Shown piece by piece: positions 19,178 through 20,464 of a stretch of DNA of 43,854 nucleotides. Source of the stretch: Candidatus Nanohalobium sp. (GTDB lineage Archaea; Nanohalarchaeota; Nanosalinia; Nanosalinales; Nanosalinaceae); NCBI GenBank assembly GCA_042216335.1, contig JBDGTY010000056.1:1-43854 (forward strand). The letters run 5' to 3'. Below the pieces are notes generated by a model that made no database searches, was not told the origin of the DNA, and worked only from the letters and a program-made list of their open reading frames with translations. Numbering within the stretch: position 1 is the stretch's first letter; the number at the start of each line of letters is the position of its first letter. Made by a program: the position numbers and the translations under genes.

Positions 19178-19591
19178 CAGAGGACCACTCTTTTCTGTAA
19201 ATACAGTACTCACTAAACTATATAAAAATGCTTCAGGGCCTCGACCCGTCAATTTTATGTCCAAGAGCTACAACAGCTAATCATGAAACAAAAAACACTG
19301 GATAGGATCAACAAGTTCTACGCCAAGAGCCTCGGCTGCACACCAGAGCTGATGGAGAACCCGAGATCGGAAATCTTCATCCGCAGAGAAACAACTAGCT
19401 ACAGCGAAGATCAGGAGGAAACAGATGTTGACATCTTCGTCAGGAGCGGTGGAAAGATAATATCCTGTAGTTCCAAAGTTCTTCCGAGAGTCCAGGAACT
19501 TGAAAAATATCTGCCTCGGCTGGAGGTATCCAAAAGATCTCTCGAAGACAAAGGGCTGGATGTTGACGAGGTTCTAGGCCCGGCTTTCCTC

Positions 19592-20025
19592 CTGAAACCT
19601 CGTGGAGACTCCGTGCTTTAGCTCGGAGGGGAAACGAGCTAAGATTTTTAAATTCTGCGGAGTATTTGTTCTTAGTCAATAGGTTTTTGAGCGGATAGCT
19701 TCCGAACAAAGGCACATCTGCGGAAGCAGATGAAAACAGCTTTTCGGAGATACGCTTCCGTATCTGAAAACCTGAAATTCTGCGTTGAAGGCAAAAGCAT
19801 ACTCGTGAGGGTTGACAGAACGATTGAAACCTTGTTCTGTTCTTTCAACGCAAAGGTCACGGTCAACTGGCCTTTGAATCAGCGATGGATGAGTAAGAAC
19901 CTCTGGAAAGAAGTTCTGTTTCCAAGTTCTTCGAATCGACTGGTAATTAAATTGTGTCTGTATTTGCATAGGATTTGGTTTCCACCTCAATCACAAGCTC
20001 CGTCCTTCAGGTCGGAGTAGTTGAC
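19592..20025 (+). mobile_element. Non-autonomous IS200/IS605-family element (PATE-like; no tnpA/tnpB)
   Basis: Left subterminal hairpin ctccgtgc-ttta-gctcggag (19609-19628). Right hairpin ctccgtcc-ttca-ggtcggag (19998-20017) followed by tagttgac, typical of IS605/IS1341 ends. No terminal inverted repeats or target duplication. Left boundary uncertain by a few nt. Confidence 0.8.
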
Positions 20026-20045
20026 AGGAGTCTTTGTATCGGAAG
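19675..20045 (+). ncRNA. Putative structured RNA, TnpB omega-RNA-like scaffold plus flanking guide
   Basis: At least six hairpins, GNRA loops (GGAA 19722-19725, GUGA 19805-19808) and G-U pairs favouring the + strand; loop gtcaact (19862-19868) complementary to terminal agttgac (20019-20025); TTTTTAAA box at ~19645-19652. Confidence 0.6.
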
Positions 20046-20221
20046 AGTATCGCGGTGAGGGATTTGGAAAAGAAGTGGTATCGAAAGCAGCTGGAGACGC
20101 ACTTGAGAAAGATCTGATTCCCTGCTACAGGACTCTGGAGAAATGGCGAAATTCAGTTAACCTGGCGAAGAGTCTTGGTTTCGAGAAGTATGCGACTACT
20201 TATCTGCTGAAGTTGGCAGAG

Positions 20222-20464
20222 TTATAGCAGTAATGAGGTCATCAGGATCTGTGTCGCAGTAAAGGCCAGAACAAGGCCTAATGCCGTAGAAATTCCTATT
20301 CTGACTATCTTGCTGTTTTCTCTCTGCTCTATCATTTCTGATCTGCCCAGCAGTAGATAGGAAGTTCCCGAGATTACTCCGAGAGAGATGATGAAAGGCA
20401 GAAACATTGTCAAAGTATCAATAAGAGCCATCTGCTGCATCGTGCCTTCAAAGCCAGAAACCAT
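20222..20464 (-). CDS. Small membrane protein (2 TM)
   Basis: Two hydrophobic helices; TTTAAA box upstream. Confidence 0.65.
   Translation of the reverse strand: MVSGFEGTMQQMALIDTLTMFLPFIISLGVISGTSYLLLGRSEMIEQRENSKIVRIGISTALGLVLAFTATQILMTSLLL

Follow-up and report, generated by a model that had tools for sequence, protein, structure and literature searches.

Protein-less elements that carry a guide RNA are already known from bacteria. Standalone omega-RNAs that lack an effector and a transposase and occur in genomes with effector-bearing loci are described as working in trans (PMC10691335), and palindrome-associated transposable elements (PATEs) of Geobacillus are stated in bioRxiv 10.1101/2023.03.14.532601 to 'often encode omega-RNAs'. 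One published figure legend also refers to a PATE that has IStron ends. In the published model, the nuclease uses such a guide to cut the donor site left empty, and recombination then restores the element (PMC10691335; bioRxiv 10.1101/2023.03.14.532601). This report describes a 429-nt element resembling these loci in an archaeon, at positions 19599-20027 of contig JBDGTY010000056.1 (GenBank assembly GCA_042216335.1, Candidatus Nanohalobium sp., Nanohalarchaeota), a stretch of 43,854 nt that was analyzed as a whole and is referred to as the window. The source genome (G000) comprises 1.02 Mb in 74 contigs and is 96% complete.

The element is like standalone omega-RNA loci and omega-RNA-carrying PATEs in having no protein gene, ends of the IS200/IS605 type and a scaffold abutting the right end, and like the standalone loci in the presence of related effector-bearing elements in the same genome. 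What is unusual, and sets it apart from both, is the DPANN host, an apparent RNA of ~350 nt with a 180-nt 5' domain derived from the tnpB open reading frame (ORF) and under base-pair selection at the RNA level, and the mixed ancestry of ends and scaffold, two copies having end hairpins of the resident IS605 type on the scaffold of another TnpB lineage. IStrons (group I intron plus IS605/IS607) are similar as structured RNAs between IS200/IS605 ends that can sit in genes; they differ by their group I intron signature, for which the mini-element gave no Rfam match. Because standalone omega-RNAs and omega-RNA-carrying PATEs are already published, the locus does not represent a new RNA class, as had been suggested in a preliminary description made from the letters of the stretch. 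The literature found on Nanohaloarchaeota and TnpB was limited to a CRISPR classification, and the supplements of the cited papers may list comparable loci.

The element is probably a protein-less internal-deletion derivative of a TnpB-only (IS1341-like) IS200/IS605 element that persists as a guide-RNA gene. Judged by homology, the parts kept are the left end, the old tnpB promoter box, two RNA modules derived from the ORF, an omega-RNA scaffold with its pseudoknot and the right end. These are located as follows (R1 and R2 are covariance models introduced below):

19599-20027, + strand: non-autonomous IS200/IS605-family element, 429 nt, 95% identical over its positions 1-429 to G002:C29:39470-39895, which lies at another locus with unrelated flanks
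19599-19643, + strand: left end, with conserved GTGGAGACTCC and the hairpin 19609-19628
19644-19651, + strand: TATA-like box TTTTTAAA, read by eye; predicted transcription start at ~19672-19677
19672-19780, + strand: 5' domain part A, forming one long irregular hairpin that contains the stem-loop 19715-19732; R2 match at L033:1270-1395; folding z = -4.59
19781-19852, + strand: 5' domain part B, a three-way junction (19781-19791/19842-19852 and two inner hairpins) with conserved GGCAAAAGCA; helices 10-12, with nine compensatory pairs
19853-19874, + strand: pseudoknot-loop hairpin (helix 13), the loop GTCAAC at 19862-19867 being the 5' strand of the pseudoknot; homologous hairpins lie at the tnpB stop codon
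19878-19977, + strand: omega-RNA scaffold stems, a composite stem 19878-19944 and a stem 19948-19977 (helices 15-18), within R1
19995-20018, + strand: right-end subterminal hairpin (helix 19), with 21 nt identical to G000:C31:504-524 and compensatory changes relative to G002:C29
20020-20025, + strand: right-end tip GTTGAC, 3' strand of the pseudoknot (helix 14) and likely TnpA cleavage motif, invariant in three copies
20028-20043, + strand: predicted 16-nt guide in the flanking GNAT acetyltransferase sequence, deduced from the build of TnpB omega-RNAs

The 3' half is homologous to TnpB omega-RNA scaffolds on the evidence of R1, a covariance model of 19851-20027 that was run unfiltered over 25 loci. 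Apart from the right-end remnant on contig C27 of genome G002 (37.7 bits) and the 3' end of the IS605 tnpB of G001 (35.0 bits), it matched the TnpB-only element G045:C18 (locus L033; 22.9 bits), G000:C31 (21.7), G023:C11 (19.0), G056:C32 (18.3), G025:C21 (14.9) and G002:C1 (12.6), and each of the matches listed covers the model in full length and lies at the gene end, on the strand of tnpB. Among 19 tnpB loci of other archaea, the proteins of which are 33-40% identical to the G045:C18 TnpB, nine have full-model matches with E < 0.01 at the tnpB 3' end on the same strand.

The loop GTCAAC and the tip GTTGAC are invariant in the three copies of the element, and in the model-fitted alignment the hairpin at the tnpB stop codon has a loop that matches, as its complement, the terminal bases of the right end of the same element, in four different pairs of letters. 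GTCAAC/GTTGAC is found in the three mini-elements and in G045:C18 (tip GGTTGAC, read by eye because R1 put this right end in the wrong place), GTGACAT/ATGTCAC in the IS605 type (G000:C31 and G002:C11; G023:C11 has a shorter GTGACA/TGTCAC and G025:C21 the IS605-type pair with one G-U), GTCACC/GGTGAC in G056:C32 and GTGAAC/GTTCAC in G002:C1. In this comparison the loop-to-tip pseudoknot covaries across TnpB families. A pseudoknot like the present loop/tip pairing is reportedly a feature of TnpB omega-RNAs in cryo-EM structures of ISDra2 TnpB.

The 5' half appears to be an RNA domain derived from the tnpB ORF itself. R2, a covariance model of 19672-19852 run over the same 25 loci, matches a single tnpB locus, L033, in two collinear places. 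The first (L033:1270-1395; 30.6 bits, E 1.3e-6, and E 9.5e-6 per genome in the phylum-wide search) encodes TnpB residues 218-259, within the ORF; the second, weak (L033:1670-1741; 13.7 bits, E 0.048), is the last coding stretch ahead of the scaffold hairpin. The words AAAGGCAC, GAAAAC.GCT, ACGCT.CC and GGCAAAAG stand in the same order in the mini-element and in L033, and the motif GAGCGGAT...AAAGGCAC is common to the window copy and G000:C40, a second, truncated TnpB locus of this type. Part A folds similarly in the parent, where L033:1262-1400 forms a long hairpin (z = -3.38), and across the three copies and L033 both sides are changed in 17 of its 30 pairs, in a model-fitted alignment that leans towards structure. 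R2 found no match inside the 19 tnpB genes of other archaea, the best score (14.3 bits) lying elsewhere in the locus, and the 5' domain may therefore be lineage-specific or have diverged beyond detection. Compared with L033 by BLASTN, the mini-elements gave only weak collinear blocks, and the homology rests on the covariance models.

Upstream of this domain the likeness to the parent continues. The left end of the G002:C3 copy is 69.7% identical over 66 nt (E 0.002) to that of L033, TTTTTAAATT lies directly before the tnpB start in L033 and G000:C40 (read by eye), and the TATA-like box recurs in G000:C40 and G045:C18 (TTTTTTAAATT / CTTTTAAAATT), directly ahead of the tnpB start codon. G045:C18, of which G000:C40 is a partial copy, has in common with the mini-element the left-end framework, the promoter box, part A, the stem of the weaker R2 match (termed H_c) and the scaffold hairpin with the loop C(A/G)GTCAAC and the tip G(G/A)TTGAC; the two differ in that the G045:C18 parent encodes a TnpB of 400 aa and the mini-element no protein, and in that the H_c stem of the latter has two added hairpins. 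Since left end and promoter, the ORF segment 1270-1395, the tnpB 3' end, the scaffold and the right end all match L033, the mini-element is best seen as a deletion derivative. About 650 nt (start codon to 1270) and ~300 nt (1396 to ~1690) of the L033 coding sequence are absent from it, the deletion breaks fall at the feet of helices, and part A, ~490-615 nt upstream of the right end in the parent, would have been brought next to the scaffold by the deletion.

The interior has no evident coding capacity. Two internal ORFs were compared with Pfam and matched no family, none of the frames of either strand is open throughout the three copies, the tRNA/tmRNA scan of the window gave none, and Rfam gave no match in the whole window at the gathering score. 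With E values up to 10, seven sub-threshold matches at chance level and no group I or group II intron were obtained in 19300-20300 on both strands; the best of them, HgcC at 19568-19649 over the left end (16.8 bits against a gathering score of 50, E 0.3), is probably due to chance.

Within the limits of three sequences, the pattern of substitutions demonstrates selection on this interior at the level of a + strand RNA. RNAalifold predicts 134 pairs from the three copies, 27 of which keep pairing through changes on both sides. With the pseudoknot included (136 pairs), both-side changes occur in 27 pairs against 9.1 +/- 2.4 in shuffled alignments and 94.1% of the cells pair against 87.7 +/- 0.9, figures inflated by the prediction of the structure from the same sequences and by the relatedness of the rows. 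On four of five measures none of 500 shuffles reached the observed value (17 of 500 for further pair types), and controls in which the structure was slid along the alignment gave 0-5 pairs changed on both sides. Helices 10, 11, 12 and 13 have three such pairs each. The single-sequence fold of 19672-20027 (z = -4.95) was equaled by none of 100 shuffles, and in all three copies the + strand folds better than the - strand, by 17-28 kcal/mol (-140.8 against -112.7 kcal/mol for the window copy).

Much of this architecture had been anticipated in the preliminary description. The end hairpins 19609-19628 and 19998-20017 and the other features it named lie where it placed them, including a box near ~19645, and the helices it listed (19715-19732, 19741-19770, 19781/19852, 19851-19876 and 19895-19931) are all part of the RNAalifold consensus, most with compensatory changes, the stem 19781/19852 enclosing actc-GTGA-gggt and acagaac/gttctgt as proposed. 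Its omega-RNA-like character is borne out by R1 for the 3' half, its pairing of loop and terminus by the covariation across TnpB families, its extra 5' structured domain by the domain found behind the TATA-like box, and the covariation among copies that it had proposed as a check by the 27 of 136 changed pairs. It had further noted the absence of tnpA and tnpB motifs, which holds for protein motifs and fails for the nucleotide sequence, as the 5' domain matches two stretches in the tnpB ORF, and it had pointed to HEARO and group I introns in Rfam, where no family matched.

The element has moved between loci. Its boundaries, drawn at 19592-20045 in the preliminary description, were set at 19599-20027 by an alignment of the copies with their flanks. 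The window and G002:C29 have the right end ...GTTGACAG in common with a contig of run X4. This contig supports 20027 as the last base, being identical over the 35 nt of the right end through this motif and diverging right after it. In the 70 genomes of the phylum, the element is found once in G000 and twice in G002, of the same genus (Ca. Nanohalobium), that is, as three copies at three unrelated loci in two genomes, and neither of the G002 copies shares the window locus. The C29 copy lies between a tRNA gene and an arginase-like gene, and the C3 copy, at the third locus, is 73% identical over 19674-19963. Further copies and tnpB-bearing relatives with shared ends, both envisaged earlier, were thus found; in G049 there is merely a left-end match of 21 nt, not counted as a copy. 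Exact 19-mer scans revealed no further true copy (two stretches in metagenomes, three in genomes including the two G002 copies, none in viral sequences), and the three extra stretches share just 19-30 nt, at chance level.

No flanking repeat indicative of a target-site duplication was seen by eye at the copies. No exact empty site was found for G002:C29, the intergenic regions of G000, G001 and G003 being too poorly alignable, or for G002:C3, the counterpart regions of which are likewise too poorly alignable. In runs X1 and X2, the segment 19854-19960 reaches a summed depth of 200-1000, against 40-72 for the flanks (contig depth in these runs does not equal copy number), with differing sequence on both sides. 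Because this segment lies on differing high-depth contigs, further family members seem to exist in the same salt-lake community, and these variants are likely to be such members, perhaps protein-coding parents. The tRNA gene beside the C29 copy (L018 1960-2175 and its counterparts) has an intervening sequence of variable length across four Nanohalobium genomes, ~55 nt longer in G001, and ~160 nt of extra intergenic DNA surrounds the C29 element in G002 and is missing in the other three.

The ends connect the element with the IS605 of its own genus, in agreement with its first interpretation as a protein-free IS200/IS605 mini-element. The subterminal hairpins 19609-19628 and 19998-20017 are direct, not inverted, repeats, 85% alike, and are kept in the other copies with compensatory changes. 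The IS605 of G001 is complete in outline (left end, tnpA with two stops, broken tnpB, right end) and agrees with the mini-element in 22 of 23 nt of the left-end hairpin and 20 of 21 nt of the right-end hairpin; the identical 21 nt at G000:C31:504-524 lie ~100 nt past the stop codon of a tnpB (PF07282, 80.9 bits) truncated by the contig start. The end hairpins of the Nanohalobium IS605 elements (G001:C2, G002:C11, G000:C31) and of the window and G002:C29 copies are near-identical. These IS605 elements have the TTTATC flank motif and the same omega-RNA architecture (hairpin at the tnpB stop, long stem, right-end hairpin, tip). They differ by the pseudoknot GTGACAT/ATGTCAC, the tip GGATGTCAC, the lack of a match to the 5' domain and a TnpB only ~34% identical to the G045:C18 type. 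The end hairpins of the window and G002:C29 copies are of the tnpA-bearing IS605 type and those of G002:C3 are of the longer G045:C18 type, as if the modules recognized by the transposase had been swapped while the RNA gene was otherwise conserved.

By eye, TTTATC precedes six of eight left ends, namely those of the IS605 of G001, G002:C11 and G049, the TnpB-only elements G045:C18 and G000:C40 and the mini-element G002:C29; the two left ends without it are those of the window copy, TGAAAC(C), and of G002:C3, TTTCAC(C). As to the IS605 loci themselves, G000:C31:1-536 comprises the 3' end of an IS605-type tnpB, the omega-RNA region and the right end and is 92% identical to the G001 and G025 copies, and the G002:C11 element, with an intact tnpA, has hairpin-forming insertions of ~55 nt in the loops of both end hairpins (L042 296-352, 1860-1915) and a run of N within tnpB in its record.

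The favored reading implies the following course of events. Internal deletions would have removed nearly all of tnpB while sparing two RNA modules inside the ORF. The old tnpB promoter would drive a + strand transcript from ~19675 through the right end into the GNAT sequence, giving a predicted RNA of ~350 nt with a guide of ~16 nt, which would be loaded in trans by a G045:C18-type TnpB encoded elsewhere in the genome, and the end hairpins would be recognized by the Y1 transposase (TnpA) encoded by the IS605 of the genus, which would thereby mobilize the element. Transcription, its start site, TnpB loading, cleavage and mobilization by TnpA are here only inferred. The guide is predicted to start at 20028, two nt downstream of the 20026 proposed earlier, because the copy comparison ends the element at 20027. 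The 16-mer 20028-20043 has no other site in the genome at 0-2 mismatches and 12 sites at three mismatches, against nine for a control pattern.

A candidate partner is present in part. The frame at G000:C40:7039-7761 corresponds to residues 1-242 of the G045:C18-type TnpB (88% identity), has no stops and is preceded by a left end of its own. The cognate nuclease to which the preliminary description had tied its reading is in this sense represented in G000 by residues 1-242 of the matching type, the rest being missing from the assembly. The segment G000:C40:6914-7762 (L081 1376-2224), with left end, promoter and TnpB 1-242, is 87% identical in nucleotides and 88% in amino acids to its counterpart in G045, which belongs to another family of the order, and this identity across families suggests a recent transfer of the TnpB-only element. 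On G002:C27 (L072 1501-2500, minus strand) a right end of the G045:C18 type adjoins a broken integrase-like frame and two motifs like tRNA 3' ends, and the remnant looks like the edge of an integrated element. In a survey of TnpA, G002 has it intact (137-aa open frame, 132.5 bits), G001 broken, and G003 and G045 have none.

Several points weigh against the element being a guide-RNA gene of this kind. Besides the inflation of the covariation figures given above, the covariation rests on just three copies, and it amounts in effect to one comparison because two of the three rows are near-identical. The R1 scores on tnpB loci are modest (12.6-35 bits) and owe much to the right-end hairpin, and two decayed loci, G001 (GTCACAT against ATGTCAC) and the G002:C27 remnant (GTCAAC against GTTCAC), break the pseudoknot rule. 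The matching TnpB gene of G000 is cut by a contig end and its 3' half is missing from the assembly; G002, with two copies of the element, has in its assembled contigs no TnpB more than 37% identical to the G045:C18 type, just the right-end remnant; and TnpA (PF01797) was not found in G000, which is 96% complete and where a contig edge truncates the IS605. Ahead of the window copy stands GAAAC and not TTTAT(C), so an emptied site would stay uncut if the nuclease needs the motif and homing may fail for this copy. Finally, the + strand structure could also serve a single-stranded DNA intermediate of transposition.

Among the alternatives, the one that survives best, still unlikely, is that of a dead deletion remnant (a plain PATE) that is mobilized, or just passively carried, by way of its ends and the interior of which has no RNA function and retains a structure inherited from the parent and not yet decayed. 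The derivation of the interior from tnpB sequence, the non-canonical flank of the window copy and the number of known copies, only three, are in its favor, and the preliminary description had itself named an interior that simply aligns to decayed tnpB coding sequence as evidence against an RNA gene. The 5' homology comes close to that situation, and the covariation argues that decay is not the whole explanation: the copy 73% identical to the window keeps 94% of the pair cells with 27 both-side changes, beyond the slid controls and all 500 shuffles, all reading frames have decayed and yet the promoter box is kept, and the deletions stop at the feet of helices.

More improbable is that the + strand structure is kept for the single-stranded DNA intermediate of transposition, or for TnpA, and not for an RNA. 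The transposition of IS200/IS605 elements proceeds through single-stranded DNA of the top strand, which is also the strand that folds here, and the end hairpins are certainly DNA signals. However, TnpA is known to need just the subterminal hairpins and short guide motifs, and the interior shares homology with the omega-RNA scaffolds that lie at the 3' ends of tnpB genes, has frequent G-U pairs (56 of 402 cells) and follows a promoter box, which makes this explanation less economical than omega-RNA homology.

The insertion site bears on a further alternative. The ORFs 19283-19621 and 20021-20227 are in one frame and represent the two parts of a split GNAT acetyltransferase gene, the second ORF being its C-terminal half according to Pfam:

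19283-19598, + strand: GNAT gene 5' part, in the same frame as the 3' part; its ORF ends at the TAG 19619-19621 within the element
19591-19598, + strand: 8 nt of uncertain origin, either gene flank (with GAAAC as a non-canonical transposon-associated motif) or extra left-end bases, the X3 joint lying at 19590/20027 and the start in the copy comparison at 19599
20028-20227, + strand: GNAT gene 3' part (Pfam FR47 3e-05, GNAT_acetyltran 3.5e-05, Acetyltransf_7 6.8e-05, Acetyltransf_1 7.6e-05)

For the N-terminal part, no homologues were found in 60 relatives and none among longer proteins. In run X3, from a different study, two contigs with related GNAT genes (records 21 and 22) pass uninterrupted through the site, which identifies the element as an insertion in the GNAT ORF. 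Record 21 joins 19590 directly to 20027, record 22 matches 20026-20205 with six differences and has upstream letters unlike the window, and in the GNAT frame the contigs read, by eye, ...AFI|GVFVSEEY. These contigs are genes of relatives and not the isogenic empty site, for which the window copy had no example among the GNAT homologues searched. An alternative genetic code as the source of the in-frame stops was ruled out: recoding cannot account for the break because TAG, TAA and TGA are all present in frame at 19619-19700. The insertion explains why the GNAT gene is annotated as two pieces.

Given this position, the element might be a ribozyme, such as a self-splicing intron (mini-IStron), that excises itself from the GNAT mRNA and so leaves the gene functional: it is sense-oriented within an ORF, its 429 nt are a multiple of three, and its last base is G in all three aligned copies. 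In IStrons a group I intron is combined with IS605 ends, and the figure legend mentioned above reports a PATE with ends of this kind. This is very improbable in view of the failure to match any Rfam intron even at E up to 10, the 5' flank ending in C and not U in two of three copies, and the intergenic position of the other two copies, one of them outside any sense transcript; tnpB/omega-RNA homology moreover accounts for both halves.

The ends also have relatives in bacteria. The left end is 88.9% identical over 36 nt to a sequence 42 nt upstream of the TnpB gene of a Bifidobacterium breve megaplasmid, and the right end agrees in 91.4% of 35 nt with one end of an IscB element of Pseudomonas plasmids, from which end iscB is directed inward; BLAST against plasmids with the element gave nothing beyond such short end matches. 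The corresponding records, ~90% identical over ~35 nt, are Pseudomonas NZ_CP027167.1 (L065 2984-3034, IscB) and B. breve pMP7017 (L066 3001-3036 and 4330-4365, TnpB). By this resemblance, one family of transposase-recognition ends is shared across domains and nuclease cargoes. The Pseudomonas match would also fit an IscB-type omega-RNA on the - strand, read inward from the right-end flank, an extremely improbable option considering that the - strand folds worse in every copy, that Rfam HEARO gave no match, that the regions homologous to the element follow tnpB in the sense orientation and that the RRXRR domain was found in none of the 70 phylum genomes (a weak argument, as the control was silent in all 14 control genomes).

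With a guide-RNA gene as the favored reading, the 5' domain may have a wider meaning. A tentative and rather doubtful suggestion is that this TnpB lineage uses an unusually large two-part guide RNA that includes the ~180-nt 5' domain. If so, part of the tnpB coding sequence would double as a functional RNA module (e.g., for RNA stability, processing or TnpB control), and the mini-element would be a naturally minimized guide RNA with its end hairpins swapped to match the resident transposase. The locus raises the testable question whether the conserved 5' domain belongs to the working guide RNA, and it offers a matched set for this purpose: a full TnpB gene (G045:C18), a partial one in the same genome as the element and a compact RNA gene with its own predicted promoter. 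The related loci also provide natural covariation data for the omega-RNA pseudoknot across four TnpB lineages. For the DPANN archaea, the element would represent a clean natural example of a guide-RNA gene that has outlived its nuclease gene, the covariation reflecting selection on the RNA after the loss of coding capacity.

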